Shown here piece by piece: positions 1-41,129 of a stretch of 64,000 nt of DNA. A program made the translations under genes and the position numbers. The notes under the pieces are model-generated. The model ran no database searches. It saw nothing but the letters and a program-made list of their open reading frames with translations, and was not told the DNA's origin. This DNA comes from an uncultured Clostridia bacterium (GTDB lineage: Bacteria > Bacillota > Clostridia > Oscillospirales > CAG-382). Where the stretch lies: NCBI GenBank assembly GCA_947630765.1, contig CANRIX010000009.1:10214-74213 (forward strand), in the 5' to 3' direction. Every line of letters starts with the position of its first letter. The first letter of the stretch is position 1.

Positions 1-190
1 CGGCGTACTGTGCGGTAAATTCCCCAAATTCCCCGACGGGGGAGTATTTCTGGAAGACGACGCCGCCTTCCTCATTCGTAAAGATCTCCAACGGCTCGCC
101 CTCGCGGATGCGCAGGCTGCGGCGGATCTCCTTCGGGATCACGATCCGCCCGAGTTCGTCGATACGGCGAACGATTCCTGTTGCTTTCAT
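1..190 (-). CDS. spoVT: Stage V sporulation protein T (AbrB/SpoVT family regulator). Only the N-terminal part is present; the gene runs off the window edge.
   Basis: Reverse translation from the ATG at 190-188 gives MKATGIVRRIDELGRIVIPKEIRRSLRIREGEPLEIFTNEEGGVVFQKYSPVGEFGEFTAQYA. This is the SpoVT-type swapped-hairpin N-domain followed by the start of the GAF-like part. Confidence 0.8.
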   Translation of the reverse strand, partial: MKATGIVRRIDELGRIVIPKEIRRSLRIREGEPLEIFTNEEGGVVFQKYSPVGEFGEFTAQYA

Positions 191-11292: not shown

Positions 11293-12009
11293 TCAGAAGA
11301 ACATCCGAACGAACGGAATGCTTCCGAACAGGCGGAACAGCAGGGTCTTGTCCGGGTCGATCCCGGCGAGAGCGCTCCAGCCGGAGAACAGAGATGTATT
11401 GAGCAGCACCCGCACCACCGTGCAGAAGATCAGAATGCGGATCAGCGCGAGCACGACGCCGAGCACGACGCCGAGCAGATGATTCGCGCCCCGCACGAAC
11501 GGGATCTTCTCCACCACGCCGGTCAGCAGGATGCTCAGCAGCTTCAGCGCGATGTACGAGCCGAAGAACAGGATGGCGACCGAGATCGCGCTCAGCAGCA
11601 TCGGCGTGACGCTGTCGGCGATGAAATCGACCAGTTCGTCGCGGAATTCCTCCTTGACCATGTTCTCGTGCTCCGCGACCCAGTTCGACAGGCTTTCGCT
11701 GTCGATACCGATCCCTTCGAGCAGGGCATACAGCTCGCTGTCGTGGTCGGAAGCGAGGGATTGACTGTCGCCCGCGTCCTGCTGCTCGACGAGGCTGTCG
11801 ATCACGGAAGCGGTATTCGTGCGGACGGCTTCGGGAAGCGAAGTGCTTTCCAGAAGGTTGGTCAATGGAGAGGTGAAGAGGAAAACGATTACCAACGCGA
11901 CGAGCGTGCTCGCGGTGGAAAGCAGAGTCTTGACAAAGCCCCGTTTGGCGGCAAGGAAGATGGTGACTCCTGCGATCAGCAGCAGGATCAGGTCAAGCAA
12001 TAGGCTCAT
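11293..12009 (-). CDS. CvpA-family membrane protein
   Basis: 238 aa with an N-terminal LLDLILLLIAGVTIFLAAKRGFVKTL pattern and 4 TM segments. Confidence 0.65.
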   Translation of the reverse strand: MSLLLDLILLLIAGVTIFLAAKRGFVKTLLSTASTLVALVIVFLFTSPLTNLLESTSLPEAVRTNTASVIDSLVEQQDAGDSQSLASDHDSELYALLEGIGIDSESLSNWVAEHENMVKEEFRDELVDFIADSVTPMLLSAISVAILFFGSYIALKLLSILLTGVVEKIPFVRGANHLLGVVLGVVLALIRILIFCTVVRVLLNTSLFSGWSALAGIDPDKTLLFRLFGSIPFVRMFF

Positions 12010-25622: not shown

Positions 25623-25629
25623 CGCCGTA

Positions 25630-25666
25630 AAAGCCCCCGAAAAGCGGTCGCTTTTCGGGGGTTTTG
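25630..25666. terminator. Bidirectional intrinsic terminator (host side)
   Basis: CCCCCGAAAAGC (25634-25645) pairs with GCTTTTCGGGGG (25650-25661). It is flanked by an A-run upstream and a T-run downstream. Confidence 0.7.
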
Positions 25667-25792
25667 CAGACCTGAAAACGAACAGGTCAAATTTCCCACG
25701 GGGAGCCGTTGGAGATAACGTTGACACCGTCGGATTCGTTCGTTTTCGGAATGCTGCATCTTGCCGAACAGATGGGGTGGGGTACATAAAAG

Positions 25793-25830
25793 AAGTCAGC
25801 CGATTGGGGAAAATTCTCAATCGGCTGACT
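25793..25830 (-). terminator. Possible terminator for the island minus-strand block
   Basis: AGTCAGCCGATTG / CAATCGGCTGACT 13-bp stem. On the minus strand it is followed by CTTCTTTTAT. It lies about 170 nt downstream of the stop at 26001. Confidence 0.4.
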
Positions 25831-26000
25831 TGCGTTTGCTCTAATGACCCCCTTTGCCGTACAAGTTTTGAACATCTTACTGACTGCTTTTTCTGTGACT
25901 TAATCCACTTTAGTCAAACAGCTTCGCGTCCGTTATGATAGATTCCCCAAAAAACAATAACACACTTTCGCGACGATTTATCATTACACCACAATATGAT

Positions 26001-29000
26001 TTAAGATGTTTGTTTGATTTTAGACTTCACAATATCTAAGCTCTTGCGGTCTTGATTTGTTTCATAAAACCCGCGAATTACCTGCTGCATGGTTTCATCG
26101 AACCAAAAGATTTTTAATTTTTCTTTGGCTCTTGTAATCGCGGTATAAAAGATGCCGTGCGTTATTTTTTCGGCATTGGCAGAAGGAATAAGAATTTTCA
26201 CCGAGTTAAATTCCAAACCTTGAGCCTTATGGATTGATACTGCATAAGCAAGATGAAACGGAATAACCGTGCGTAGCCGCATTTCGTCCTGCTTTTCAGC
26301 TGGAGCCTTTGGATCATATTGATATACCGTAAACCGAACGCGCGTTTCTTCGCCAAACGTATCAATATATTCAACGTCTGTTCCGAAAAAGTGACTTTCT
26401 GTCAAAATAGTCCCTATATCTACGGTAAATGTAATGCTGTGATTGTCTTTTTTTATGTCGGCAATTCTCCCTTTCAAATTATTATAGAACATGGGAAATC
26501 GAGGTGCATTACTGAAAAGAATCGGATCACCGATTTTGTACTTCCATTCTTGCCATTCAAAAGCTTCGCTTTGCTTATTTAGGCTCTGGAAATATTTATT
26601 AATGTTGTTCAAACCAAACTTCCCGTCATAGTTCAAGCACAATATAACTTCGTCTTCTTCCTCTCTATGAAAAATATTTTCCCCGATTTTTTCAGAAAAC
26701 GGACCCTCAAAGACGAGTTTTCAGTTATCATCCCTTTGTTTCGAACTTCGTCCCACAAATTGATGAGTTCTTGCTTTTCGGTTCGCCATGTGGTCAGAAG
26801 TTCCACATTGACACCTGGCGCCTTTACCAATTCTTTCGCATAAGAAAACCAATTTCCAAAATCGATTGATTCAATCTGATAAGTATCCCCCGCCAAAACC
26901 AGAAAAGAATCCTCGTTGATTTTGCTCAACAATCTTCTCATCGTGCGATTGTCAATCGTACTGCATTCGTCAACAAAGATGACATCGTAATCTTTCAAAT
27001 TTACTTTGCGCGTAAAGCTGTCAATACTGATAAAATCATGTTCTGTTCCGGGATTGTCAATACGAGCTTTCAAATTTTGTAGTGCTGTATGTGTCTTCGT
27101 TAAAAACAGCTTGCTTCGATCATTCATCATATTGGAAAGATAATTAATCAAAGTCGTTTTGCCGGTTCCGGCAGCGCCGTATATCAACAAAATACGGGAA
27201 TTTACAAAAGCAGTTGTCAAAGCCTGTTTTTTCAACGGATCCGTAATATTGTTTTCCTGGCGTTTCACAAATTGCCGGTTAAATGCTTCTTGCCCTTTGT
27301 TGCCAATAGACGACAGTTCCAAAAGCTTTTTGATAATAAACAAAGTATCCTCTTCATAAAAGTCAATACAGGTAAATCCGTTTTCTCTTTTGATCTTATA
27401 CCCGTTTTTCAGCTCCCAATCACTGAGACTTTCATTAAATTTATCAATAGATCCTTCTGAAAAAATTGTTTCGTCAAAATAAATTTCGCCAGTTTGACGT
27501 ATCAAGCTTTTCAATTTTATAAACGGACTCATTTCATCCAGTTTACTGTCGCCCGCGGCTTTTAATATATTTTTCAAATTTCCGATTTCGTTTGTTCGAC
27601 TGCCGGGAAGATTAGAGATAAAAGGATTCCGTTCAAACGGGATACATTTCGTAGATAGAAGAAATTGGTCGCATAAACATTTTGGAGTAAACTGTGAAAC
27701 CATTACATTCTCCAGCGTTTCTTCTTTTAATTCGATCAATAAATATCTTATCGTGTTGTATCCAACGCTTTTTGAACCTTCTGCGAAATTTTTTCTCAAG
27801 TAAAGAAGGACATCCTTAAAACAAGCAGTATTGCAGTTTTGATAAATCTGATTGACAATATCATGAAACTGAAGTTCCCTTAAATCAATCAAAGATAAAA
27901 GATCAATACCCGTAGTAGTTAAAAAATTCATAAGTGCCGCATATTCTCCGTAATTTGAACTAAGCTTAGCAGAAAAACGAAACAGAATTTTTGTCAACTT
28001 ATTCAGGCACGCCGGCTCAATTGATACTTTCCAACCGGATATGATTTTGATTTCCGATGGAACATCCCACAATTTTATAGGAACTTCTTGATAGGATATC
28101 TCAATGGAGTAGTTTGTAGAAATATTCTCTTTGGTATAAACCGTGATTCGGTTATATTTCGTAGCATATATTCCCGCCAGTTGCAATGTCATCTCATAAT
28201 ACCGCTCAGTTCCAACAAAGAACGATGCTTTTTTCTGAATGTAATAGCGGTCATGGCTGGCTTTTTCAACATAACAAGGGGTATTTTCTATTATTTGAGC
28301 AACTGCTTTATAATACTCCTCATCAGCAGGATCCTCCTGATTTCGTGGGAATCTTTCTAAATTATGCAATACCGATATTCCATATTTTTTCTTTAAGAAA
28401 TCTCTGATTTGCCAAAGAAATTCATAATATTTCAACATTAGGCGTTCCGCCTGCCCTTCGTCGGGGATACGTCCTCCTATATATTTAAGAGATTTCAAAA
28501 AAGCTCCTAAATACTTGGTGCGTATATCCAGCAATGATTGTTCCCATGCCAGACTAAGGCTCACTTTGTCCTGATTGTGGCTTAATGCATTCAATATAAG
28601 TGTTGCTTTGCAAAGATCCTCCAAACGAGTCAAAATCCGCTTTGAGATATTATCGCGTGTTTCATTGCAAATGTCCATTCGGTCAATACTCTCTGTGATT
28701 TGTAGATCGCAGGACTTGATAATTTCAACTGCATCTTTTTTGGAATAGCTCGAATTGTTCAGCTCTCTGATAAAGGCATGTCGATCAATAATATCAATGA
28801 GTTCTTCGCAAAACCGTTCCACACTTTCATCCGTATTTTTAATTTCTTCTTCTGAAGAAAAAGAAATCGTTACACTTTCTTTTCCAAAATCTATGCCGTT
28901 CAAAAAGCTAACCGACATATATTTCCAAAACACTCGTTCCATTCCTCGATTGTCCGGGTGGAGTACTACAAATAAAATACAGGGATCAAATGTAACGGGC

Positions 29001-29311
29001 TGATAAGCAAAAGCGGGGAACGCCAGACTTTTCAGACAGTATTTGATTTTTCCATCAACTTCTGAATAACAGGTTGTTCCCTTTATTTGCACAAATAGGT
29101 TTTGACTTGGCCGGCGGCTGATATTCGGATTTTCCACAAACTCAAACGTCCCATCCGTATTTGGCCAGCTGTCTGTACTGGAAAAATGCGGATTGATTCT
29201 CCCGTCAGACCTTAAAAAAGATTCTAAAACGGAAACAGCAGAACGGTCTTCGGCAGATCGTTCCGTATGTGTTTTAATGTGACGTTGAATCACTTCAATT
29301 TGGTTATCCAT
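26001..29311 (-). pseudogene. N-terminal PD-(D/E)xK-like (DUF4365-like) domain fused to a C-terminal Dda/RecD-like SF1 helicase, about 1100 aa. It is split by one frameshift.
   Basis: The 892-aa ORF carries helicase motifs I GAAGTGKTT, II DVIFVDECS and III LAGDTYQ. The 213-aa ORF carries motifs V/VI (AVSIHKAQGLEFNSV, YTAITRAKEKL). The downstream frame is open back to 26706, so the two frames overlap at 26633-26706. The shift probably lies at the T6 run at 26687-26692 or just upstream. Confidence 0.75.
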
Positions 29312-29379
29312 ACACTTTACCCTCCTTAAAAGAGCGGTTTTCGATTAAGATAGCTTTTAATTCTATTAGATGTTTACAG

Positions 29380-30660
29380 TCAGGACTCCGTATCCAATTT
29401 CAAAAATCCCTGTTCAAAAGCACCGGGGAATTGAAATCTTTTATCCATACCGCCGAATACGACAACGATAATTCCTCCGTCAATGCCCTTGACCTGCCCT
29501 GCGCCAAATGCCTTGTGTGTGACAATAGTGCCCGCGCGAACTTTAGAAGTGTCTACCTTTATTGTCGCTTTCTTTGCAGACGGCGCGGGAACAGATGTAG
29601 GGGGTACGTAAGACGGACGATAGGTACCGCCCGTAGATGGCTTTGTATCATGCACAATCGGCGTTCGCTTTACATCATATTTCACTTTCGGCTCCGCCAT
29701 CAGCAAATCTTCTTCATCTTCGTCTTCATCTTCATCAAAATTGGAGCTGACGTTTGTAAATACCGGTCTTTCAGGAAGATCGTCTTCTGACGGTGCGTCT
29801 GCTTGCATGGAAGAAGCAAGTTGTCCCGCCATCGCGTCATAATCCGCGCTGGAAATGACGGTACTGTACAGACCCACATCCTCTCCGGAATGCTTGTCAA
29901 TACCCGTATAAATCAGGCTTGCGTCTTCATACCGCTTAAATTTATAAACGGCGTCATTCATCAAAGCCTCATTGAACACATTCAAGGAAACAAGCAGCTC
30001 AAAATCTTTCACATTCAGACCGGTGACTTTTTTGAAAAGCTCCGGCTCCAGCTGCGTGATGACATCCTGTAAGCTGTATTCCCGATAGTCCGTCAGATAC
30101 ATGAACACAGGCACACGGGTCGCCAACTTAATCAGTTTCTCCTGAATCATTTTCCGCTTCGATTTATATTCCTTCTCGGCGTCTGTCAGCTCTTTCTTCT
30201 CTTTTGGCGTCAATTTCTCTCCGTCACGCTTGGCTTTCTTTACGGCATTGGACTTATTGATAATCGTTTCAATATCCGAATTCAAACTACGGAAGCCTTC
30301 AATACGCATGAGTGCGTCCATGGCTTCCTCGCCGGCAAGCAACCTCGCAAGCGTGTCATTGTCTACATTAATAAGCAGCGCGGATTCCCAACGCTTGGCG
30401 AGCAGCGTCGCGGAAGTACCGGCCATAGCAATATCCAAAATCTCAGCGGCGTTGACCTGCCGCATGGCGCTTCCGTCATAGGCAAGCACAGGCAGGAAAT
30501 TGATAAACTCCCCGACCTTCTTTTCAGGGTTGCTCTCCGCCACATTCAGGCGGCAGCTGTAATCGGAAATCTGACGAAGCGCACGGTCAAGGGCGAAATC
30601 AAAGACATAACATTCCTTTCCATGGATTGTTCTGATAATTTTTTCACTTTGTGAAGAATA
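29380..30660 (-). pseudogene. C-terminal fragment of about 420 aa from an SF2 helicase/restriction (Res-like) protein with a Tudor-like tail. The 5' helicase core is missing.
   Basis: The frame is open upstream of the annotated GTG through ...IHGKECYVFDFALDRALRQISDY, which resembles the segment after helicase motif VI. There are no motifs I-VI upstream because that space encodes the methyltransferase in another frame. The C-terminus VTHKAFGAGQVKGIDGGIIVVVFGG...FLKL resembles the UvrD/PcrA C-terminal Tudor-like domain. Confidence 0.6.
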
Positions 30661-31619
30661 CCTACTGCCTCGTTGTATCGAATAAAGGTATCACATCCTT
30701 TTTCAAGCAAAGGACGGCTAACCGGTCCCAACACTTCGTTTCCTTTATGAGAATATACAGCACAGATTCCGGCATTATCTCTATCCCACAGGAAGTACGA
30801 CACACCACCTTTAATTTGAACACCAGTGAAACAATCGGATGCTTCAGGAAAATCATGAATAATTCGCAAATGATTATCGTGTAACATCTCATCACGATAT
30901 TCGTCAAGGCCTTTCCCACCTGTGAACCATCTTGATGGGGTAATCATAGAAATAAACCTTGGATTCAATTTCTTAGCACCTTGGACAAATAGTTGATATA
31001 TAGGCTTTGCACTTGCGCCATTTCCACCTCCGTCATTTAATTGATATGGCGGATTACTGATTATCACGTCAAACTTCATCTTAAATATTTCCTCCGGCTT
31101 TATGGTATGTATCCATTCATAGGCGTGAGTTTCGAGTCCTGCCTCGCGGTCGTATTCCTTTTGCGACGCCCCGCAGAACACACATCGCCCGTCTTTCCAT
31201 CTGTGCTGAATATTCTTAAAGCGTATATTCCCGTCAACCGTATCAAAGTGCGTCACGGAATAATTTCCGTTTGCCGTCTTGGAACAATACAGACTGCGTC
31301 GCGAGAGGTGAGCGGTCAGCTCCGTGATGGAAATGCCGTAAAGCTGATGTTTGAAAATGTGGTCAGTCCGCTCTTGAAGGTCAGGATAAATCGGCTCAAG
31401 ACCATCGAGAAGCCGCTTCGCTATTTCCCGCAAAAATACGCCGCTCTTTGCAGTCGGGTCTAAAAACGTGGTGTTTGGATCGCTGAACAATTCCTGCGGC
31501 AGAAGGTCGAGCATGGCGTTTGCTACTTCCGGCGGGGTGAACACCTCGTCGTTTGACAGATTGGCAACACAGGACAGCACGTCCGGGTTATACATTGTAT
31601 TATAGAGATTATTTGCCAT
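30546..31619 (-). CDS. N6-adenine DNA methyltransferase (Eco57I-like, NPPY type), possibly 3'-truncated
   Basis: FTPPEVANAMLDLLP (motif X), FLDPTAKSGVFLREI (motif I) and DVIISNPPYQ (motif IV). Confidence 0.8.
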   Translation of the reverse strand: MANNLYNTMYNPDVLSCVANLSNDEVFTPPEVANAMLDLLPQELFSDPNTTFLDPTAKSGVFLREIAKRLLDGLEPIYPDLQERTDHIFKHQLYGISITELTAHLSRRSLYCSKTANGNYSVTHFDTVDGNIRFKNIQHRWKDGRCVFCGASQKEYDREAGLETHAYEWIHTIKPEEIFKMKFDVIISNPPYQLNDGGGNGASAKPIYQLFVQGAKKLNPRFISMITPSRWFTGGKGLDEYRDEMLHDNHLRIIHDFPEASDCFTGVQIKGGVSYFLWDRDNAGICAVYSHKGNEVLGPVSRPLLEKGCDTFIRYNEAVGILHKVKKLSEQSMERNVMSLISPLTVRFVRFPITAAA

Positions 31620-32358
31620 ATTCCCAAACCCTCCTGTAATCGGTAATATAGGACGTCAGCAGTTCGCCTTCGTCGTCGGGCGAAACGTCAAACAAACTAA
31701 TCTGATAATCGCTTCCTGTTTTTTCTTCGCCGGCGGCTCATATTCGCCGGCGAGCAGTTTATCAAAGCGGAAGTCCTTGCGCTGCATTTTACTGCCCGTC
31801 ACGAACGCCCACTCGGAGAAAATGATAGGCTCGTCCGTGTCGTTTCCGTTTTCATCTACTTTTTTAAGACTCAATGCGTTGCCACAGACGATGTTCCTGC
31901 TCAAAATAAAGCGGACAGCGGCCCGACAGTCCTCACTTACTTCTTTTTTTGCAAACTGCCTCATATTCGGTGTTCCATATCTCATAAAGCCGCTCTCGGC
32001 AAGCGATAACGTTATCCATCATTAAGTCAACGCCGTAAATACTTGCCACGGCGATAACCGACTGCTTTTCAAATTCAAGAGGCAGAGGTTTCTTCTTTTT
32101 CGGCGGTGTAGAGCGCCTCTTTGCCGACTCCAGCTTGCGCCGGAGTATCTCAACCACAAAATTTCCATCGCCACAGGCAGGCTCTAAAAACCGGCTGTCC
32201 ACCCGTTCTGTCTCTTGTTTTACCAAATCGAGCATTGCGTTGACTTCGCGCTCAGCGGTAAACACTTCACCGAGATCCGCTACACGCTGCTTGGATTTCA
32301 CTTGCTTTATCGAAGATTTGCCTTCGATTGATTTTTCAGATAAATTCGTACTGTTCAT
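31609..32358 (-). pseudogene. Methyltransferase-fold protein with SAM motif I but no (N/D)PPY seen, interrupted by two homopolymer frameshifts
   Basis: GEVFTAEREVNAMLDLV, FLEPACGDGNF, IYGVDLMMDNV, NIVCGNALS. Three frames must be joined, at the T7 run at 31944-31950 and the T-run at 31718-31725. The last frame ends ...DYQISLFDVSPDDEGELLTSYITDYRRVWEYGK* and overlaps the ATG of the next gene. Confidence 0.6.
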
Positions 32359-32370
32359 GATGCTTTCCCC

Positions 32371-34236
32371 TTACCGGCAATCTGCCGCCACCGCCACCCG
32401 TTTTCCGCTGAACGCGACGCCGTATTTATATACGATTTTGACGCCCGCGGCGGTGAGCTCGGTGTCGTATTTTCTGTCGATGATCTGCTGCAGCGCGGCT
32501 TCTGACAGGCGTTTCAGCTCCGCGTCCGAGCAATTTTTGGCGGCTTTCAGCTCAATCAAAATGCCAGGTAGGTTTTTCTTTGCGGGTTTCAGCTGAATGT
32601 CATACCTACCGTCGCCGGACTCCCGGTTGGAGGAGACAAACGCCCCGCCGAGCAAGGCACAAAGGCCGAGCATGAAGCCGTGATAAAAATTTTCGCCCGC
32701 TGTATCAAAGGAGCTGACAGACTGGGTCAGCAGGGCTTGGATCAGGTCTTTCAGCCTGTCCTGATTGCCGGAGAAAATTGCTTCCTGAATGGAAATGGCG
32801 ACGGGCTGTGGAATGATGTCGTTCAGCTTTTGCAAAATTTCCTTGTGGTAGACGAGAGCAATTTCTTTGTTCGGCAGCGCCACCTCACACATAAAATCTC
32901 CGTTGAACGACGGCGTGGTTTTCAGTACTTTCAGGTAACCCGCCACCAGCAGGAAGCTGTAAATGGTGGACGGATTGTTTTTGATCTGCGGGTAAATCAC
33001 GCCCGTATCAATATAAGTCGTAAAAGACTGCCCGTTGACAAGGGAGATCAGCTTTTCGTAGATTTCCCGGTCTGCCTCCGCGATAATCTCGCCGATGATA
33101 TCATTGCTGCCGGTGGACTGCCAAAAGGCGCGCGGCTCACATTCGTTGTTGAAATAGTTAATCACCGACCAGGGGTTGAAAATCTCGGTTTTCCCGAAAC
33201 GATAGCCGTCGTACCATTGACAGAGTTCTTCGTATTTATCGGAAACGCCGTAGTAAGCCGCCATTTCCTTGACCTCTTCGGAGGTGAAGCCGAAATAGGC
33301 GCTGTATTTGTTATCTAGCACGGAATGAATGGTCAAATTATTCAGTCCGCTGAAAATGCTTTCCTTGGCCACACGGAGAATGCCCGTGAGAAACCCGTAT
33401 GACAGGTGCTTGTTGTCCTTCAGCCCGCCGGAAAAGAGGTTTCGCATAAAGAGAATCACGTTATCGTAGTAACCTCTCATGTAACCTTGCTGGATCGGGA
33501 TATCGTACTCGTCAATGATGATAATGGGCGCGACACCGTGATGCTTGTGGAGCATTCCTGACAGATTCAAAAGCGCGCCGGAAAGCTCGACCTCGCTCAC
33601 GTCACTGGAGAGCAGGTTTTCAAACGCCTTCTTTTCATATTCATTGCATTTGTCGGAGGCTTGCAGCTCGATATGGCGGGCCGCCTCTTTGGAAAAAACG
33701 TCCCGTATGGCCTCAAAGGTTTCTTCCCAAGTGTTGAACTTGATGTCCTTAAAGGTGATGAAGATCACCGGATATTTGCCTTGGCAGGCGCGGTATTTCT
33801 CGCCGCAGGCCCAAATCTTTTTGTCCTTGAAATATACGGATGTGTCTTCGTCGGTCTTTTCAAAAAAGGTGCGAAGCATATCCATATTCAGCGTTTTTCC
33901 GAACCGGCGCGGGCGGGTAAACAGAGACACCATCGGCTTTTCGTCGAGAAAATCCTTGATCATCATGGTTTTGTCGACGTAATAATATTCGGTGGACGCC
34001 AAGCGGTAGTCGGACACGCCGACCGGCAGCGGCAGCGCCGTTTTTCGGACGGTTTTTCGATAGGCTCCCGTCTTGACTCGTTTATCAATAGGTTTTTCTG
34101 CATCGGCGGGAATGACCCAATTCCTGCCGTCTTTTTTCGCCCCTGCAATGCGCCCCTCTTTGCAAAGCGTCGAAATCCTGCGTTCGCTGATATTCCAAAG
34201 GGCGGCGGCCTCTTTTGCGGACATGGTATTTGACAC
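32371..34236 (-). CDS. HTH (excisionase/MerR-like) + AAA-ATPase_like (PF09820-type) + PDDEXK_9 (PF08011-type) protein
   Basis: 621 aa. The N-terminus is AKEAAALWNISERRISTLCKEGRIAGAKKDGRNWVIP. YYYVDKTMMIKDFL...FTRPRRFGKTLNMDML is the predicted AAA-ATPase signature. The C-terminus GDGRYDIQL...ILIELKAA...AALQQIIDRKY is the PD-(D/E)xK signature. GTG start 7 nt after a GGAGG. Confidence 0.8.
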   Translation of the reverse strand: MSNTMSAKEAAALWNISERRISTLCKEGRIAGAKKDGRNWVIPADAEKPIDKRVKTGAYRKTVRKTALPLPVGVSDYRLASTEYYYVDKTMMIKDFLDEKPMVSLFTRPRRFGKTLNMDMLRTFFEKTDEDTSVYFKDKKIWACGEKYRACQGKYPVIFITFKDIKFNTWEETFEAIRDVFSKEAARHIELQASDKCNEYEKKAFENLLSSDVSEVELSGALLNLSGMLHKHHGVAPIIIIDEYDIPIQQGYMRGYYDNVILFMRNLFSGGLKDNKHLSYGFLTGILRVAKESIFSGLNNLTIHSVLDNKYSAYFGFTSEEVKEMAAYYGVSDKYEELCQWYDGYRFGKTEIFNPWSVINYFNNECEPRAFWQSTGSNDIIGEIIAEADREIYEKLISLVNGQSFTTYIDTGVIYPQIKNNPSTIYSFLLVAGYLKVLKTTPSFNGDFMCEVALPNKEIALVYHKEILQKLNDIIPQPVAISIQEAIFSGNQDRLKDLIQALLTQSVSSFDTAGENFYHGFMLGLCALLGGAFVSSNRESGDGRYDIQLKPAKKNLPGILIELKAAKNCSDAELKRLSEAALQQIIDRKYDTELTAAGVKIVYKYGVAFSGKRVAVAADCR

Positions 34237-34265
34237 GGTCGCACCTCCTCACAAGTATTGTGTAT

Positions 34266-34294
34266 AGTATAGCAGATTTCAAGAATAAAATCAA
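34266..34294 (-). promoter_or_regulatory. Putative sigma-A promoter of the island minus-strand block
   Basis: On the minus strand: TTGATT (34294-34289), a 17-nt spacer, then TATACT (34271-34266), about 30 nt upstream of the GTG at 34236. Confidence 0.5.
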
Positions 34295-34298
34295 TATC

Positions 34299-34339
34299 TA
34301 TCGGAACAATGTCAAATAAATTTTGATATTGTTCCGATA
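34299..34339. repeat. Perfect 12-bp inverted repeat next to the -35 box; candidate operator
   Basis: TATCGGAACAAT (34299-34310) and ATTGTTCCGATA (34328-34339), separated by 17 nt. Confidence 0.6.
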
Positions 34340-34848
34340 AAATGTTCTTTTGTGTGTTCTATGCGCGAGCGGGAAGAAAAACCACACTCATTTTCAAATG
34401 AAAAATGACAATCATTTAAAAAAGCAAACGGATTTCTATTGGATTTGTCTTGGATTTATGCCGTTCTTTTCGATAGGATTGCCTCCTCTCGTTTCGATAT
34501 GACGGGGACTCTCCCTTCGGAAGTCAGGCTCTTTTCGGCATGATTTCCTCTTCGTTATGACTAATCTGCTCCCTCATTTCGAGAGCAGGGGGGATTTCCC
34601 TCTTGTCATATCGGAAAGAACCTCATTTTCTTTGTCATTGAAAAGGGGTCTTTTTCAGTCAAAAAAAGAGCCTTGAAAAATGAATTTCCTATGCCCCACT
34701 TTTTGACTGAATTTTTTGAAAGAAAGTGAGCGTCCGAAAACGGAAGTCATAACAAAAAAGCTCTCGAAATTTGGTCCGTTTCGAAGAGAGGGTCATTCTT
34801 TCCAATTTTATGATAGAGGGTCGTAAATTCGGGGTAAAACCATAGTAA

Positions 34849-34916
34849 ACTTCGATTCTTGCCGAGTAAAACTTCGATTCTACCCCTTGCGAGTTCGATT
34901 CCAGCCCATTTTACCA
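34849..34916 (+). repeat. Three phased direct repeats A(C/G)TTCGATTC(T/C). The third lies inside a segment resembling a tRNA 3' end that finishes in ACCA.
   Basis: Copies at 34849-34859, 34871-34881 and 34892-34902, with 22- and 21-nt spacing. From 34894: TTCGATT + 5 nt + 7 nt + A + CCA reproduces T-loop-to-CCA spacing. Only 3 of 5 T-stem pairs form and there is no 5' half. Confidence 0.5.
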
Positions 34917-35040
34917 TCACGAATCCTAAAGGGGGCGTTTCCAGAATCCAAGTTGCACAAATTGGAAACGAAGTTGCACGCCTCGTGTTCCGACCGATTT
35001 TTGAGTCTGACGCGGACGTCGACCCGTGGTTCCAAACGAA

Positions 35041-35077
35041 AAGTAGGGGCATACCGCTCCTACTTATGCCCCTACTT
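35041..35077. other. Strong 12-bp hairpin; terminator-like on the minus strand
   Basis: AAGTAGGGGCAT (35041-35052) pairs with ATGCCCCTACTT (35066-35077). On the minus strand it is followed by TTTTCGTTTGG. Confidence 0.35.
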
Positions 35078-35254
35078 ACGCCCCTACCGTTTGGGAGCAT
35101 TGCCCCGCTAACATCTTCATCAAAAATCACCTCTTTTCTTGAAATATGTTTCCGCAAAAGTCAAACTCCTTTTGTCTTCTAAAAAAATCAGGAGGAATCG
35201 CAGCGGACTATTTTTCCGAAAAATGGAAAGACCAAAAGAGAAAGAGGTGAGAGC

Positions 35255-35504
35255 TTGCGGGTCGAAGTGAAGGAGAAACCGATTCGGGCAGCGTTTGTCT
35301 GGCTGAGTCGGGAGGAGGGGAAGAACGAAGCGCTGCTGCAATCGCTGAAGCCGCAATATGCGGCATGGAAAGCGCAGGGGTATTTGCCCGTGGTGATGGA
35401 ATCGGGTGCGGGAAATCCTAAAGACTGCCTGTACGGGCTGGTGAAGCACTACTGCGAGAAAAAAGGCAAAGGAGCAGACAAAAGACGAACGCCCACGCCG
35501 ATGA
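35255..35504 (+). CDS. Small hypothetical protein of the recombinase module; 3' end uncertain
   Basis: TTG start 7 nt after AGAGG. Sequence: ...KPIRAAFVWLSREEGKNEALLQSLKPQYAAWKAQGYLPVVMESGAGNPKDCLYGLVKHYCEKK. After the A6 run at 35459-35464 the track frame runs on to 35725. A neighbouring frame stops at 35504 (KKAKEQTKDERPRR*). Confidence 0.35.
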
Positions 35505-35641
35505 GCGGATGCCGAGCGCATCCGTTACATAAAAGTCACACTTCGGCTCTTGCTTTCCCGAGAAATTTTACGATACTACGATACAATGTTATCAAGATAA
35601 ATCTTATAAGAGCAATGTCGTTGTGTGCAAGGAGAAGTATT

Positions 35642-36494
35642 ATGGATAATTCGATACAGCTGTTTGAAGATCAACCAATCCGCATGGCGTGGGATTCGGA
35701 AAAAGAGGAATGGTATTTTCCGTAGTGGATGTGGTCGGGGTTTTGACCGAACAGCAGAATCTTGATGGCGCAAGAAATTACTGGAAAGTTTTAAAATCGC
35801 GTCTGTTAAAAGAGGGCGGCGAGTTGGTTACAAATTGTACCCAACTGAAAATGAAATCGCCCAAAGACGGAAAGCACTATCAAACCGATGTGGCCAATAC
35901 CGAACAACTCTTGCGCATTATCCAGTCCGTCCCGTTCAAAAAAGCCGAACCGTTTAAGCTGTGGCTCGCCAAGGTTGGCAAAGAGCGTCTCGAAGAAACC
36001 GTCGACCCGGAACAAGCCATCGATCGTGCGCTGGAAACGTATCTAAAAAAGGCTATTCCGCTGAATGGGTACACCAGCGCTTGCTGTCAATTCGCATCCG
36101 CAACGAATTAACCGACGAATGAAAAAAACGCGGCGTGGAAAAAGGGACGGAATACGCGATTTTAACCGACGACATCAGCAAGGCATGGTCAGGCATGACG
36201 ACGCGGCAGTATAAGAACTTGAAGGGGCTCAAAAAGGAAAATCTGCGTGACAATATGAGTGATACCGAGCTGGTATTAACCATGTTGGCAGAGACTGCTA
36301 CGCGTGACATTTCAAAATCTGAAAATCCAAACGGATTTAACGAGAGCCGCAAGGTAGCAACTCGCGGCGGCAAAATCGCCGGAAACGCCCGAAAGGAACT
36401 TGAATCCGAAATCGGCGAACCGGTAATTACGCCGAAAAACGCATCCGAACTCGGTCTTCTTGTCCGTGAATTGATTGAGGAGGGGAAGTCATGA
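35642..36494 (+). pseudogene. Bro-N / DinD-like (phage antirepressor-type) gene with two frameshifts and an in-frame TGA
   Basis: ATG at 35642 after GGAG. MDNSIQLFEDQPIRMAWDSEKEEWYF|SVVDVVGVLT... shifts at the T4 run at 35716-35719. ...ETYLKK|GYSAEWVHQRLLSIRIRNELTDE shifts at the A6 run at 36045-36050. TGA at 36120-36122 sits where W is expected (DE*KKRGVEKGTEYAILTDD). Confidence 0.75.
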
Positions 36495-38326
36495 GCGAAC
36501 CGTTTCAAATTGCGGGATATTGCCGCATTTCGGTGGACGAGGAGCTTGACTGCGACAACACCTCGATTGAAAACCAAAAATCCATCATCAGGGACTACGT
36601 ATCCCGCGCCTTTCCCGGCTCAAGCCTGACCTTTTACGAGAACCGTGACCGGTCGGGTTATACCTTCGAGCAGCGGGAGGGGTATCAGGCCATGCGACCG
36701 CTGCTGATGAATCACGGGTACGACGTTCTTGTCATCAAGGACTTTTCCCGCTTTTCCCGCCGCAACAGCCGGGGACTGGTGGAGCTGGAGGATCTGCGGG
36801 ACGCAGGACTGCGGATCATCTCGCTCGGCGACAGCATCGACTACCCCACCTATGACGACTGGACGGCGATCCAGCTCCGTTTCCTCGTCAACGAAATGCC
36901 GGTGACCGACGCGTCCAAAAAGGTCCGTTCGGTCATCAAACGTCGACAGGAGGACGGAAAGTGGATCTGCGCCGTGCCCTATGGTTACGTCATTACCAAC
37001 TCCAAGACCATGACCTTTGAGCCCGAACCCACCGAAGCGGAGGTGGTGCGGGAGATTTTTTCGCTGTATAACGACGGCTGGGGCTATAAGCGGATCGCGG
37101 AGCATTTGACCGACAAGCACATTCCTACGCCCCGCATGAACGAGCGCACCCGCAAGGAAGCCCGCGGCGAGGACTGTAAAATCAAGGCGCGTCCGGAATG
37201 GAGCATCGCCACGGTGCAGGGCATTTTGCAGAACGATTTTTACATCGGCACCCTGCGGCAGGGCAAATACACCCGCAAAAAAAACGGCGGCGACGTGAAA
37301 CGGGAGCAGGACGAGCATATCGTTTTTGAAAATCACCACGAGGCCATCGTGGACTATAAGACCTTCGCCGTCACAAAACAGTCGCTGAAAGTCCGCTCCA
37401 CCGGCAACTATCGCGGCGTGCGTAAGTATGACAACGTCTATTCGGGGCTGATGGAATGCGGCGACTGCGGCAGTCCCATGTTCCCCATGAGCCGCAAGGA
37501 CTTAAAAGAAGCCTACCGCTGCGGTACGTATCACCGGCGGGGGTTGAAAGGCTGCACCAGCCACCACATCCGGGTAAACGTGCTGGACGGACTGCTGAAA
37601 GAATATCTGCGCAAGGTGCTGGACGGCTCGGCGGATGATCAGAAAGTTGGAAAAACAGATCGCCGACGAGTCCTCCGCCGAAAAGCAGAACCGGGAAATA
37701 ATTTCCATTTTGGAACGCCAGCTTGCCGACGCAAAGAGGAGCTGAAAGTCCTTATCCGGCAAAAGACCCGCGAGGTGATGCGAAAGCCGGAAGAAGAGGC
37801 GCAAATCGAAGAAACCTACGGCGAGTTGATCGACGAGTGCCGTCTGCGGGCTGCGGGGCTGGAAAATCAAATCGCCCTCACCGCCGACAAGCGCAACACG
37901 ATCATTCGCGTCAACCGCATCGCGTCGACTGCGCTAGGGATCTTCGATGAGATCCTCGCACACGACCGCCTGGACAAGCGCGACTTGGAATTGCTGGTGG
38001 AGCGCATTTACGTCTATGAGGATCATATTCACATCAAGTCAAAACCCGATATAGAATGTATCCTGCAAAGCGGCGCGCTGCCGGAGGAAAACGGGTCGGA
38101 AGCCGCAAATTTTGATTCGGGCGTCATAGGTATCGCACAGACCCGCGCAGTCCAGACGAGCGCACACCGTCCGGACAAGGTCTATGGCGTCAATGTTATC
38201 AGCAGCGGCGACGGCGACGAAATGCGCACGAACGGCGTTATCCGCTTCCTTACGAGAGCATCCAGCCGGGATTCCCGAGGGAAACGTTGTCGCAGGTGTT
38301 CCCGTCCCCCGCGTCCCCGCAGGTGA
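36491..38326 (+). CDS. Large serine recombinase. The ORF stays open but about 35 codons in the coiled-coil region are out of their apparent native frame, and the 3' end reads into host DNA.
   Basis: The resolvase catalytic domain is YCRISVDEE...SIENQ...RDRSGYTFEQREG...FSRFSRR. It is followed by a recombinase domain and a zinc ribbon (CGDCGSPM...CGTYHRRGLKGCTSH). It overlaps the Bro gene stop by 4 nt. Confidence 0.85.
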   Translation: MSEPFQIAGYCRISVDEELDCDNTSIENQKSIIRDYVSRAFPGSSLTFYENRDRSGYTFEQREGYQAMRPLLMNHGYDVLVIKDFSRFSRRNSRGLVELEDLRDAGLRIISLGDSIDYPTYDDWTAIQLRFLVNEMPVTDASKKVRSVIKRRQEDGKWICAVPYGYVITNSKTMTFEPEPTEAEVVREIFSLYNDGWGYKRIAEHLTDKHIPTPRMNERTRKEARGEDCKIKARPEWSIATVQGILQNDFYIGTLRQGKYTRKKNGGDVKREQDEHIVFENHHEAIVDYKTFAVTKQSLKVRSTGNYRGVRKYDNVYSGLMECGDCGSPMFPMSRKDLKEAYRCGTYHRRGLKGCTSHHIRVNVLDGLLKEYLRKVLDGSADDQKVGKTDRRRVLRRKAEPGNNFHFGTPACRRKEELKVLIRQKTREVMRKPEEEAQIEETYGELIDECRLRAAGLENQIALTADKRNTIIRVNRIASTALGIFDEILAHDRLDKRDLELLVERIYVYEDHIHIKSKPDIECILQSGALPEENGSEAANFDSGVIGIAQTRAVQTSAHRPDKVYGVNVISSGDGDEMRTNGVIRFLTRASSRDSRGKRCRRCSRPPRPRR

Positions 38327-41129
38327 TCGTGATCGTCTCCGCACCCGCCGGGACGGACAGCTCCAGCAACACCTTTTCCCCGTAAACGAACGTGCGTGTC
38401 CGATAGTAGACCGCCTCCGGGTCCAATCCGGCTCCGTCGAAGGACACGAGGATCTGGGAACTCGCCATGACGTAGTTCGCGTCCACCTTCGCGTTGTCGT
38501 CGATGCCGCAGACCGCGACGAACCGCTTCGCCCCGTCCGGGACGGCGTAGGTGAACGACCCGACCGCGTTCGTGCCCAGTCCGCGGGAATAGACGGTCCC
38601 GTCGATCGTGATCGGGTTGTTCTTGGTGTTGCGGTCCTTGGTCGCCGGGTCGCCGGGGTAGCCGGTCGTGGCGTTCAGCCAGTCGGCGTCGGTCAGCTGG
38701 AGGTCCGGCTCGGTTTCGGCCAGGCAGGACGCCGAAAGATAGCGGTCGAGGCGGAAGATTTGCCCGTCCGGTTCGGCGTACAGCCTTAACATTCCGCCGG
38801 CGCCGAGGGAAAGCGGTTCGCCGTAGACCGGGGAATCCGCGTTCGGTTCGCTGCCGTCGGTGGTGTAGTGCAGCGGGGCGGAAAAGTTCGGTCTGAGGGC
38901 GACGGTCAAGCCGGAATCGTCCTCGTCGGTCTGCACCCGCACGCGGGGCGAGGTGCCTTCCACGAAGCGGCAGGAAAGCTCGCTGCCCGCCCCGTCGCCG
39001 TCCAAAATGCGGACGCGCAGGGTGCAGCCTTCGGTGATCGGAAGCGGCTGCCCGGAAACGATTCGGGCGGAATTCTCGCCCGGCTGACTGCCGTCGAGCG
39101 TGTAGACCGCCGTGGCAGACGGGTCGGCGAGCTCGGCGAGGACGGGAAGACTGTCGTACAGCTCCCCGCCGTACTGCGAGAGCGTCACGCGGTCAAACCG
39201 CGCGAGGAACCCGCTGACCGCCGGGAACGGCAGTTCGACGGTATCCGCTTTCGTGACGTTTCGGACCTCCTTCGCAAGACCGCTTTCCGCGTCCGTCCAA
39301 AGCTCCATGCGGTAGGTCCCTTCGCCGAGGAACTCGGAAAGGTTCAGCGTGACCGTGCGCTTGACGGACTGGTAGTTGATCCCGCCGACGAACCAGCTCC
39401 CGCCTTCGCTCTCCCGCGCGAAGACCGCCGCCGATCCGATGCGGCTGGGCTCCAGCACGACCGTGCGCTTCCAGACCGTCGGAACGCTCTTGATCATCTC
39501 CAGCGTCGGGAGCTCGAGCAGGGTCTCCGGGTCGGTGCCGAGCACCTGCAGCGGCGAATCCGTCAGCACCAATTGCGCGAGGTGGAAAGCGGTATCGACG
39601 GCGGGAGTGAAGTCCGCGTGCCCCGCCAGATTGCGGGTGAACACCTGCGTCGTGAACATCTGCGCCTGCGTGCGCAGGTCGGTGACAGCGGTGGATTCCA
39701 GCCCGAGGATCGCCTCCCGTCCCAGCTCGTTTGGCCAGGTCACGTCGTAGCCGGTCGGCTTGTTGCAGCCGTGGAAGTCGACCAGAAGCCGTTTTTCCGC
39801 CGCTGATTGCAGGATCTGCCGGTAAAGGTCCACCCCGTTCCTGACGTCGGTCTCCTGCGGGAAAAAGTCGATCTTTCCGCCGGACATGCCGGTCTGCGCA
39901 AGAAACGAGAGGAATTCCTCCGCTTCCTCCGCCGAGCGGATCCCGTTGTGGAAGCCCGCCCCGGCGATGACGCCGGTCCAGAGAAGCTGCCCCACGCCGA
40001 GCGCTTTCCCCTGTTCGGAAAGTTCCTGCAGGACGGTCTCATAGTCGTCCCAATACACCCAGCCCTCGTCGATGAGGTTGTACTCGAATCCCAGCGCACC
40101 CGCCGCGTCCGTATACGAGCGCATCAGCTCCGGGGTCACGCGGTCGGTGGTCCGGCCGGTGATCCACGACCAGACTGCCCGCCCGGGCTTGACCCAGTCG
40201 TCCGCGAACAGCTCCTCGTCCGCCGGTTCGCAGAGCTGGTAAAGGATGGTGTTGTTCACCAGTTCGTTCAGGTCGTCCGCCACCGCGAGCACCCGCCACG
40301 GGGTCAGGATCTCGCCGGTTACCGTGAAGCGGACGTTTTCCACGCCGTCGCGGGAAAAATCCGCCGTATAGCGGTTCGCGTCCGTCCAGCGCAGGCAGAT
40401 CCCCGCGTAGGCGGCAAGGTCCGCTTCCAGCAGGGCGACGTACCGCCCGTCGTCGAGCGCGACCGTCGCGGGCAGTCCGAGCGTCGTCGGATTCTCCCGC
40501 GAGGGCAGGTGGGCTTCGATCTTGCTTTCGTAGTAGATGTGCGTGCTGCCCGCCCAAAGACGGCTTTCGGCGGGGAGGACGAAGGTGGTTTGCTCGCTTT
40601 CCACGGTGCGTTCCCCGTCGCCGGGCAGGCGGTAGCGGAAGGCCGCACCCGTTTCAAAGACCCGCGCTTCCAGCGTGAACGCGGTTTCGCCCTCGCCGAC
40701 CGGCAGGGAAACGGACAGGCAGGGCGCATTCGCTTCGCTGACGCGACCAAACACCCGCCGTACGTCCGTCCGCAGTTCGCTCACCGCGTCGCCCAAACCG
40801 TCCGCGCCGAGCGCCGTGCCGTAGGAAACGCCGTCGACGGTCAAACCGAGCGCCCCCTCCTCGAGGAAAACCTTCCCGTCCCGGGAAAGGGAATAGCAGA
40901 GCTCCCCGTCCCGCACGGCGACCGTCAGGACGGTCCGCCCTTCCGGCGAATACAGTTTCCACGCCCCGTCCTCCCGCATGGCGACGCCGGCGGGACCCGT
41001 CGGCCCGGACGGGGCGGCGCTTTCGTCCGTCGGCGGGGCGTCCGGCGATCTCGCGCAGGAAGCGCCGAGCGCGAGGGCGACGAGCAGAAGCGTGCAGATG
41101 CGCAGACAGGAAAAAATGCGACGTTTCAT
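38250..41129 (-). CDS. Secreted GH97-like glycoside hydrolase with C-terminal accessory and NPCBM-like carbohydrate-binding domains
   Basis: 959 aa with a signal peptide or lipoprotein-like start MKRRIFSCLRICTLLLVALALGASC. Other motifs are NLIDEGW, GGKIDFF, VDFHGCNKPTGYDVTWPNELGREAILGLE and a C-terminal ...ITIDGTVYSRGLGTNAVGSFTY. Confidence 0.75.
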   Translation of the reverse strand: MKRRIFSCLRICTLLLVALALGASCARSPDAPPTDESAAPSGPTGPAGVAMREDGAWKLYSPEGRTVLTVAVRDGELCYSLSRDGKVFLEEGALGLTVDGVSYGTALGADGLGDAVSELRTDVRRVFGRVSEANAPCLSVSLPVGEGETAFTLEARVFETGAAFRYRLPGDGERTVESEQTTFVLPAESRLWAGSTHIYYESKIEAHLPSRENPTTLGLPATVALDDGRYVALLEADLAAYAGICLRWTDANRYTADFSRDGVENVRFTVTGEILTPWRVLAVADDLNELVNNTILYQLCEPADEELFADDWVKPGRAVWSWITGRTTDRVTPELMRSYTDAAGALGFEYNLIDEGWVYWDDYETVLQELSEQGKALGVGQLLWTGVIAGAGFHNGIRSAEEAEEFLSFLAQTGMSGGKIDFFPQETDVRNGVDLYRQILQSAAEKRLLVDFHGCNKPTGYDVTWPNELGREAILGLESTAVTDLRTQAQMFTTQVFTRNLAGHADFTPAVDTAFHLAQLVLTDSPLQVLGTDPETLLELPTLEMIKSVPTVWKRTVVLEPSRIGSAAVFARESEGGSWFVGGINYQSVKRTVTLNLSEFLGEGTYRMELWTDAESGLAKEVRNVTKADTVELPFPAVSGFLARFDRVTLSQYGGELYDSLPVLAELADPSATAVYTLDGSQPGENSARIVSGQPLPITEGCTLRVRILDGDGAGSELSCRFVEGTSPRVRVQTDEDDSGLTVALRPNFSAPLHYTTDGSEPNADSPVYGEPLSLGAGGMLRLYAEPDGQIFRLDRYLSASCLAETEPDLQLTDADWLNATTGYPGDPATKDRNTKNNPITIDGTVYSRGLGTNAVGSFTYAVPDGAKRFVAVCGIDDNAKVDANYVMASSQILVSFDGAGLDPEAVYYRTRTFVYGEKVLLELSVPAGAETITITCGDAGDGNTCDNVSLGNPGWMLS

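Follow-up and report, generated by a model that had tools for sequence, protein, structure and literature searches.

What placed some 12.5 kb of low-G+C DNA between two convergent genes of an uncultured Clostridia bacterium, and where did this DNA come from? The locus was analysed in a stretch of 64,000 nucleotides (nt) from contig CANRIX010000009.1 of assembly GCA_947630765.1, hereafter the window, in which an earlier note had described an island of about 12.5 kb integrated by a large serine recombinase (LSR). Probably, the island was inserted by its own LSR and is a member of a family of elements that normally split the sporulation gene spoVT; it came to lie at an off-target intergenic site, has decayed since, and is most likely immobile. 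The interpretation of the earlier note was partly supported: it was right in kind, placed the ends 9-11 bp off, and missed the family, the normal target of that family, the detached tail of the recombinase, the decay and the recurrence of the occupied site in several samples.

The host genome (G000; 2.1 Mb, 39 contigs) was compared with loci and contigs (L-numbers) and with proteins (P-numbers), and two relatives, G001 and G024, were informative at the same spot. In 500-bp windows, G+C of 0.59-0.69 in the flanking DNA fell to 0.34-0.57 over the interval of about 25.7-38.2 kb, with means of 0.46 for the island, 0.64 for the flanks and 0.60 genome-wide. The spot counts given earlier (23/60 at 27001-27060 and 38/60 at 24001-24060) were exact, and the stop codons of the two flanking host genes, encoding a nucleotidyltransferase/hexapeptide protein and a GH97-family (GH97-like) protein, stood at the positions already reported (Table 1). 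Both flanking open reading frames (ORFs) are complete, no gene is interrupted by the island, and the island is single-copy in G000. Its recombinase gene is open over 611 codons and encodes the Pfam domains Resolvase (PF00239, 2.1e-15), Recombinase (PF07508, 3.8e-24) and Zn_ribbon_recom (PF13408, 9.9e-14), a match to the integrase family PHROG 95 (6.8e-81), and an R-I-S motif at residues 12-14 that is invariant in the homologue alignment. The G+C break is real, and the claim of an LSR-integrated island was supported.

The element runs from 25705 to 38211 (12,507 bp). On the right, L113 is 92.8% identical to the window at the nucleotide level from 36490 to exactly 38211; past this position L113 reads spoVT (GCCGCTTGAGAT...), whereas the window reads unrelated CGGCGACGAAAT.... 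The element arm at this end (P) is identical to L113 at 24/24 positions, and similarity stops after a GA dinucleotide. On the left, the window matches L115 and L116 at 97.5% identity over 25700-29297 (3.6 kb), and L114 at 93.5% over 25700-25854; left of 25700 all three read spoVT (...CGCGAGGGC), whereas the window reads ...TTTCCCACGGG. These closest relatives in other contexts place the left limit of homology at 25700-25705.

When the attP site was rebuilt from the two junctions, its arms of 24 nt matched as a dyad at 19/24 positions around the central GA. Contiguous attP forms in relatives matched in the same way at 16/24 (L065) and 17/24 positions (L038). The imperfect inverted 15-mer of the earlier note, GATAACGTTGACACC at 25714-25728 with its reverse complement at 38186-38200 (2 mismatches), was found where it had been reported and was unique in the window: only these 2 matches occurred in 64 kb at <=2 mismatches, against a mean of 0.07 in shuffled sequence, and 0/100 shuffles reached 2. 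Each 15-mer forms the outer 15 nt of its 24-nt arm, P' on the left and P on the right. Alignment of the sites thus bore out the proposed layout (attL = B-core-P', attR = P-core-B', with the 15-mers in the P' and P arms), as well as the placement of the right arm in the 3' end of the recombinase gene, the right 15-mer falling inside ORF 36491-38326. The similarity said to continue outward also held; the arms run 9 bases further, and 7/10 extra positions pair (one of them being the last base of the 15-mer).

Mapping the exchange by aligning the att sites, as had been proposed, put the crossover at the GA of 25703-25704 and 38210-38211. This assignment was made because four lines agreed: both homology breaks, the centre of the dyad, the lack of another fitting dinucleotide, and the orientation of one relative. 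In that relative, L045, the element sits backwards in spoVT (11749-11856) and TC stands at the crossover when read along the recombinase gene, which fits a central dinucleotide that sets polarity. CG and GG, a short way upstream of the GA, are likewise common to attL and attR but lie off the dyad centre; within the interval that the family allows, GA is the only dinucleotide that fits the evidence. Two further dinucleotides common to attL and attR, at +8/+9 (GA) and +11/+12 (AT), were rejected, as L113 diverges right after the central GA. Across the family the codons at +8 to +12 vary in attL (LQ, LL, SQ, LP) and are invariant in attR (PLE), and therefore belong to P' and B', respectively. A target that shares almost nothing with attP in this way pins the crossover of the whole family to one GA; in normal spoVT insertions a common core of 11-12 bp hides it.

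The relatives used to set the ends belong to a large family. Among species-representative genomes the scan yielded 80 loci; their recombinases were 56-71% identical over the full length, except for one partial match that reached 80%. After a conserved ...VNVIS motif, 65 of the 68 loci inspected read into GDPLEIYTxxDGEVIFKKYSP...FLGKQMEE, the C-terminal part of SpoVT. In 5/5 genomes checked, spoVT was split into pieces on the same strand and 13.5-41 kb apart, one encoding the N-terminal residues 1 to ~36 and the other the C-terminal residues ~28-188. At the left junctions of the family, a short tail encoded by the element (...ITLT...ML.L..R.G..*) is joined to the SpoVT N-terminus. Among the 120 best homologues in a large protein collection, 116 carried a SpoVT_C domain fused in frame. 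The rest were three proteins of ~600 amino acids (aa) with the native tail (the free attP form) and the protein of the window itself, which, apart from the three free-form proteins, was the only one of the 120 with a non-spoVT tail. The protein P0002, encoded in L113, is 90% identical in amino acid sequence to the window recombinase and is fused to SpoVT_C. Altogether, the alignments describe a family of elements that insert in spoVT at one fixed point, the GA of codons 32-33, and the window recombinase belongs to this spoVT-splitting family as an ortholog with the same attP arms and the same native tail.

No family recombinase was found in the 60 other species of the host genus searched. Annotated phages and plasmids yielded no close relatives of the recombinase, and close matches occurred only in unannotated faecal phage contigs. 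A literature search turned up no publication that connects spoVT with intervening elements, serine recombinases or prophage attB sites. SpoVT is active in the forespore, and the known targets of intervening elements are mother-cell genes. The family, which splits a forespore-acting regulator and is apparently undescribed in print, is a more interesting object than the island itself.

In the host of the window the normal target is empty. Its spoVT is intact (TIGR02851 match 1-179/180, 187 bits, open frame without stops), and the attB within it is unoccupied (...CGCGAGGGC GA GCCGTTGGAGATC..., central GA at window 96-97). The B arm of this site closely matches that of the host of L115, and the site looks competent. 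The island lies 25.6 kb away from it, in an intergenic spacer and not in spoVT. The insertion is therefore off-target, at a weakly similar site that shares with attP little more than the GA. When the flanks were joined at the GA, a spacer of 120 bp holding one strong hairpin was obtained. This hairpin is likely the bidirectional terminator of the original spacer: the earlier note had placed such a terminator at 25630-25666 in the joined short spacer, and the DNA folds strongly on both strands at ~25626-25672. A simple terminator scan had skipped it, with only 4 T after the stem.

DUF4368 marks the multi-targeting clade of LSRs (Durrant et al., 2022; PMC10083194), and the Pfam search gave no DUF4368 match in the window recombinase. 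Because this mark of multi-targeting is absent, the enzyme looks like a site-specific recombinase caught in a rare off-target event. It may be speculated that the cognate site stands empty since an insertion in spoVT without excision would block sporulation and be lost, and an intergenic insertion would be harmless.

One resemblance between the island and the host spoVT was observed. The inner 12 nt of P' (GCCGTTGGAGAT, 25705-25716) are identical to the inner B' arm of the host spoVT (window 84-95, minus strand), and the P' arms of the closest relatives differ at 3-4 of these inner 12 positions. The identity may be a coincidence within family variation or a trace of history.

The attP site lies inside the 3' coding part of the recombinase gene, and the C-terminus of the enzyme therefore depends on the integration state. 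In the window the last 27 native codons are stranded at the other end of the element. This orphaned tail matches the tails that follow the SpoVT N-terminus in the attL fusions of relatives (92% for P0121, 83% for P0122), and the same native tail ends the free-form recombinases of ~600 aa, P0020, P0040 and P0051. Only excision would reunite it with the gene, in the attP form; the recombinase would then end in ...VNVISSGEPLEITLTPSDSFVFGMLHLAEQMGWGT*, followed by the hairpin at 25793-25831. That hairpin is kept in L114-L116, is unique in G000, and is likely the terminator of the recombinase gene in the attP form. In the integrated state the recombinase ends in 38 unrelated codons taken from host DNA, to 38326.

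The gene also carries internal lesions. The coiled-coil motif within the zinc-ribbon domain is not intact when aligned to homologues. Over 37633-37736 the +1 frame restores the conserved coiled-coil sequence, of which P0002 has the intact version, and an in-frame loss of 3 nt lies at 37283. Because ~37 coiled-coil codons are out of frame and the +1 frame matches the homologues, the gene is best called an LSR pseudogene. Five other, distantly related LSR genes occur in G000 (26-31% identity; C15, C1, C10 in two places, and C2), one of which has an internal TAG.

Independent ENA and Logan contigs from other samples carried the same junctions and lesions. Over window 30456-39919, L118 matches at 99.98% identity (2 mismatches in 9.5 kb, gap-free); for L119 the identity is 99.74% over 26491-40199. 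The 50-bp attL recurred unchanged in five contigs representing five samples, and the 50-bp attR did so in L118 and L119. A split helicase gene of the island (892/211-aa) was found in eight contigs. L118 has exactly the same coiled-coil lesions of the recombinase, and in L119 the gene carries a further 26-bp deletion at 37420. Junctions and lesions that recur in independent assemblies are therefore not assembly or sequencing artefacts, and the extra deletion in L119 indicates that decay is continuing. Every same-species contig recovered was an occupied site. The island is present in the samples ERZ27249352, ERZ27249358, ERZ27249129, ERZ27249610 and ERR10663758. Because no family recombinase was found in the 60 other species of the genus searched and the G+C is foreign, the island is a fairly recent import, now fixed in the sampled populations. 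With its recombinase in this state it is most likely immobile.

The proposed course of events is as follows. A circular form would have carried the 50-bp attP, two near-mirror arms of 24 bp around GA, within the 3' coding portion of the recombinase gene. The enzyme would have cut attP and a chromosomal site at GA and swapped the halves, giving attL (host arm-GA-P') and attR (P-GA-host arm), with the unrelated intergenic site between the nucleotidyltransferase and GH97-like genes used instead of spoVT codons 32-33. This integration would have parted the recombinase from its last 27 native codons and given it a meaningless 38-residue tail read from the host. Later decay would then have broken the recombinase coiled coil, a small upstream gene, two defence-type genes and a methyltransferase module. 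The anatomy of the junctions points to an exchange between attP and a pseudo-attB made by the LSR of the element itself; other routes of insertion are unlikely, because the ends are precise at the attP centre.

Several observations weigh against this account. Neither an empty-site allele nor a circular junction was found among relatives, metagenome and viral contigs, or protein look-ups. The check proposed in the earlier note, a search for the joined flanks in 60 relatives, returned no empty allele; a gapped pattern of the rebuilt attB had no match in metagenome contigs, and a pattern of the P' arm had none in metagenome or viral contigs. When the nucleotidyltransferase protein next to the island was looked up by its exact sequence, the result was an occupied contig or nothing. 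Of the two informative relatives, G001 has other DNA at this spot and G024 (L018, C4) a much shorter, different spacer; neither is an empty site. Integration at this locus was thus read from the anatomy of the junctions and not seen. The rebuilt 50-bp target is only weakly like the cognate attB (20/48 direct, 22/48 inverted), and ~1-4% of the 303,071 GA-centred sites in G000 match the cognate attB as well. The account gives no reason why the element should have used the present site and not the spoVT site at a distance of 25.6 kb, which looks good. The spacer at the junctions (57 bp and 38 bp) has no counterpart in G001 or G024, and its host origin is assumed. Immobility, finally, was judged from sequence only.

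Other readings of the junctions and of the present state of the island were weighed. The 15-mers are the most obvious inverted repeat, and the earlier note had put the breaks at their edges (25713/25714 and 38200/38201). A crossover immediately beside them is highly improbable: the homology of the element with relatives in other contexts runs 9-11 bp past both 15-mers, the dinucleotides adjoining them differ (GA on the left, AG on the right) and leave no common 2-bp overlap, and the dyad is centred on the outer GA, so the true GA lies 9-11 bp further out. Since the assembly is in 39 contigs and the island is foreign in G+C, a chimera joining an element of another organism to this contig might also be suspected. 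Such an error is barely conceivable, as both junctions fall precisely on the recombinase crossover without a shared k-mer, and independent assemblies of several samples gave identical attL and attR, flanked on the outside by the host genes. An island that is still mobile, with frame breaks that are tolerated, bypassed or mere assembly errors, would accord with the open recombinase ORF and the good scores of its catalytic, recombinase and zinc-ribbon domains, and with two located lesions that are 1-nt changes in homopolymer runs (T5 at 26718, A6 at 35459). However, the same lesions stand in independent assemblies (gap-free in L118, and the split helicase in eight contigs), the recombinase indels lie outside long homopolymers, ~37 coiled-coil residues have been replaced, and the enzyme is cut off from its native tail; in one population the recombinase carries the further 26-bp deletion, and all same-species contigs recovered are occupied. 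Continued mobility is accordingly quite improbable.

Two further readings concern the relation of the insertion to spoVT. The short flanks (25667-25702 and 38212-38249) might be relics of a second, decayed copy of spoVT, which would make the insertion on-target after all. By eye they read ...KRTGQISHGE and GDGDEMRTNGVIRF, loosely like SpoVT around codon 32, yet their local alignment to spoVT was no better than that of shuffles (p ~0.10 left, 0.24 right), the rebuilt spacer of 120 bp with its terminator leaves no room for a gene, and no spoVT paralogue lies between these two genes in G001 or G024; this reading is very improbable. Less remote, though still unlikely, is a local hop, in which the element first resided in spoVT of this lineage, was excised with restoration of the gene and re-inserted nearby, selection keeping both the intact spoVT and the island. 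A random site within 25.6 kb of the cognate attB has a chance of ~2% in a 2.1-Mb genome, the inner 12 nt of P' match the host spoVT at the same positions, and the host site looks fully competent, with its B arm close to that of the L115 host. On the other hand, the 60 other genus species hold no family recombinase and so no trace of an earlier residence in spoVT. A serine recombinase transfers no arm sequence, the P' identity is possibly family variation (L114/P0121 also encodes PLE), and a single case of proximity is weak evidence. An off-target insertion by a spoVT-family LSR, followed by decay, remained the preferred explanation.

A broader view is doubtful, in which the island is a natural record of a spoVT element that escaped its target: it would have left or bypassed a gene that the spore needs, settled at a harmless site in the vicinity, been kept because its hosts then combined working sporulation with the cargo, and lost its recombination machinery afterwards. 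If it were true, off-target capture would be a route from a developmental element to an ordinary fixed genomic island, and the locus would be a natural minimal target (little more than GA) for studying the strictness of the recombinase. A natural off-target event by a seemingly strict enzyme family bears on the trust placed in serine integrases as engineering tools. The locus also shows the aftermath, in which the recombinase first loses its native tail, then decays, and is followed in this by the cargo. On its own it is an ordinary decaying genomic island, LSR-borne and with defence-type cargo.

Sporulation-gene elements excised by LSRs include skin in sigK (SpoIVCA in B. subtilis; CD1231 in C. 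difficile, with CD1234 as its directionality factor), SPbeta in spsM (SprA/SprB) and gin in gerE (PMC5025042, PMC5499854, PMC4191935, PMC5595907). The family of the island resembles these in the type of recombinase, in splitting a sporulation gene, spoVT, at one fixed point, and in that its elements must leave precisely to restore the gene. In contrast, the window island interrupts no sporulation gene, spoVT being intact, and spoVT is not among the targets named in those papers. With phage-type integrases (phiC31, Bxb1, A118, SPbeta SprA) the recombinase shares the three-domain architecture, dyad arms in an attP of ~50 bp, a non-palindromic central dinucleotide at which exchange takes place and which determines orientation, and the occasional use of weakly similar secondary sites. 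It differs from them in that attP lies inside the recombinase ORF, so that the tail changes with the integration state, and in that the island lacks phage structural genes. Clostridial elements of the Tn4451/Tn5397 type, with the LSRs TnpX/TndX, excise as circles and recombine at GA; their targets resemble the element ends. They carry resistance genes and use many targets, whereas the family of the island is overwhelmingly faithful to one gene. Defence islands on integrative elements are similar in cargo, the island carrying a PDC-S53 helicase-nuclease, a PDC-S13/Bro-N protein and restriction-modification (R-M) parts, and its close relatives a complete type I R-M module in the same slot. Unlike in these, most of the cargo in the window is pseudogenised.

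Table 1. Features of the island and its surroundings, in window coordinates.
Feature	Position	Strand	Details
Host spoVT, intact; 5' part in window	1-187	-	G000:C9:9843-10400; continues left of window
Host nucleotidyltransferase/hexapeptide protein gene	stop TAA 25620-25622	+	757 aa
Host hairpin after nucleotidyltransferase gene, outside island	25626-25672		-28.2 kcal/mol (+), -23.5 (-); z -6.4, -4.6
attL	25679-25728	+	host B arm 25679-25702, crossover GA 25703-25704, element P' arm 25705-25728; CGAACAGGTCAAATTTCCCACGGG-GA-GCCGTTGGAGATAACGTTGACACC
Orphaned native recombinase 3' end	25705-25789	+	last 27 codons, ...(G)EPLEITLTPSDSFVFGMLHLAEQMGWGT; stop 25787-25789
Element hairpin directly 3' of orphaned stop	25793-25831	+	-28.6 kcal/mol, z -7.5
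DUF4365 + SF1-helicase gene (PADLOC candidate defence family PDC-S53), broken	26001-29311	-	892-aa and 213-aa ORFs
387-aa ORF	29380-30543	-	no significant Pfam or PADLOC match
Eco57I / type IIG-like DNA methyltransferase remnants	30546-32358	-	ORFs of 357, 109 and 141 aa
HTH + AAA-ATPase_like + PDDEXK_9 protein gene, intact	32371-34236	-	621 aa; domains from Pfam; same gene in L115/L116
Region of ~1 kb without convincing ORF, between cargo and recombinase module	34237-35254		short ORFs, no Pfam matches
Small conserved gene upstream of recombinase	35255-35725	+	82 aa in L113 (231-479); frameshifted near 3' end
Bro-N / PDC-S13-type gene, broken	35689-36494	+	PDC-S13 (5e-53) 4-28, 28-136 and 165-275 on three ORFs in three frames
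LSR gene, element-encoded part	36491-38211	+	ORF continues to 38326 in host DNA, antisense to GH97-like gene
Out-of-frame recombinase coiled-coil stretch	37633-37736	+	~37 codons; -2 nt at 37633/37634, -1 nt at 37736
attR	38186-38235	+	element P arm 38186-38209, crossover GA 38210-38211, host B' arm 38212-38235; GGCGTCAATGTTATCAGCAGCGGC-GA-CGGCGACGAAATGCGCACGAACGG
Host GH97-family (GH97-like) protein gene	stop TTA 38250-38252	-	959 aa
Rebuilt attP			...AGCAGCGGC-GA-GCCGTTGG...
Rebuilt empty spacer/target			...CCCACGGG-GA-CGGCGACG...

The cargo lies between the orphaned tail and the recombinase module (Table 1). On the two ORFs of the broken helicase gene, the PDC-S53 profile (4e-180) was covered at 6-682 and 692-896, and Pfam matched DUF4365, AAA_30 and UvrD_C_2. 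The lesion is a loss of 1 nt in the T5 run at 26718; the intact relative in L115/L116 has 1103 aa and is 97.5% identical in nucleotide sequence. The methyltransferase remnants matched Pfam Eco57I (3.7e-37) and covered the PADLOC profiles MTase_II and REase_MTase_IIG in part. In L115 (10394-20057) and L116 (1580-11243), both in spoVT, a complete type I R-M module (HsdR, HsdS, HsdM) stands where the window has these remnants, which indicates that the backbone swaps R-M cassettes; the gene for the 621-aa protein is part of the backbone common to the relatives. The homologue of the broken PDC-S13-type gene in L028-L033 is one open frame, and the window copy has two frame changes. Although the matches to PDC-S53 and PDC-S13 are strong, frameshifts affect both genes, the methyltransferase module is fragmentary, and the PDC families themselves have candidate status only. 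With most of the cargo pseudogenised, a present-day defence function is therefore doubtful.

The small gene encodes an N-terminal part of 68 aa that is conserved in 22 of the 80 family loci, where it likewise directly precedes the recombinase. It matched no Pfam or PADLOC family, and an extra A stands in its A6 run at 35459 relative to L113. It may be regarded as a candidate recombination directionality factor. Neither a tRNA nor an Rfam family was found in the island, and no PHROG family for head, tail or lysis proteins was matched. The only head-and-packaging match was a weak one of a small-terminase family (5.5e-06) to the N-terminal HTH of the 621-aa protein; the other PHROG matches in the island were to helicase, methyltransferase, HTH and integrase families.

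The spot between the nucleotidyltransferase and GH97-like genes differed in both relatives. The region compared in G024 matched the window at 25645, 38250-38295 and 41137. There the whole GH97-like gene is absent, and a 46-bp piece of its 3' end (matching 38250-38295) adjoins a different terminator; the GH97-like gene is therefore itself variable among species. At the same spot, the sister species G001 (L017, C59; 3219-7279) carries a different, lower-GC insert of 4 kb with two genes and without a recombinase. These genes encode a 446-aa protein with weak PD-(D/E)XK and PDC-S26 matches and a 671-aa AAA+ ATPase with AAA_lid_6. In the host genus this spot appears to be a hotspot for foreign genes, possibly of defence type. 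The hairpin that ends the AAA+ ATPase gene of the G001 insert (L017 7226-7271) is 82% similar over 46 bp to the window hairpin at 25788-25831; no P' arm is present there, and the likeness was treated as a coincidence or a shared type of terminator.

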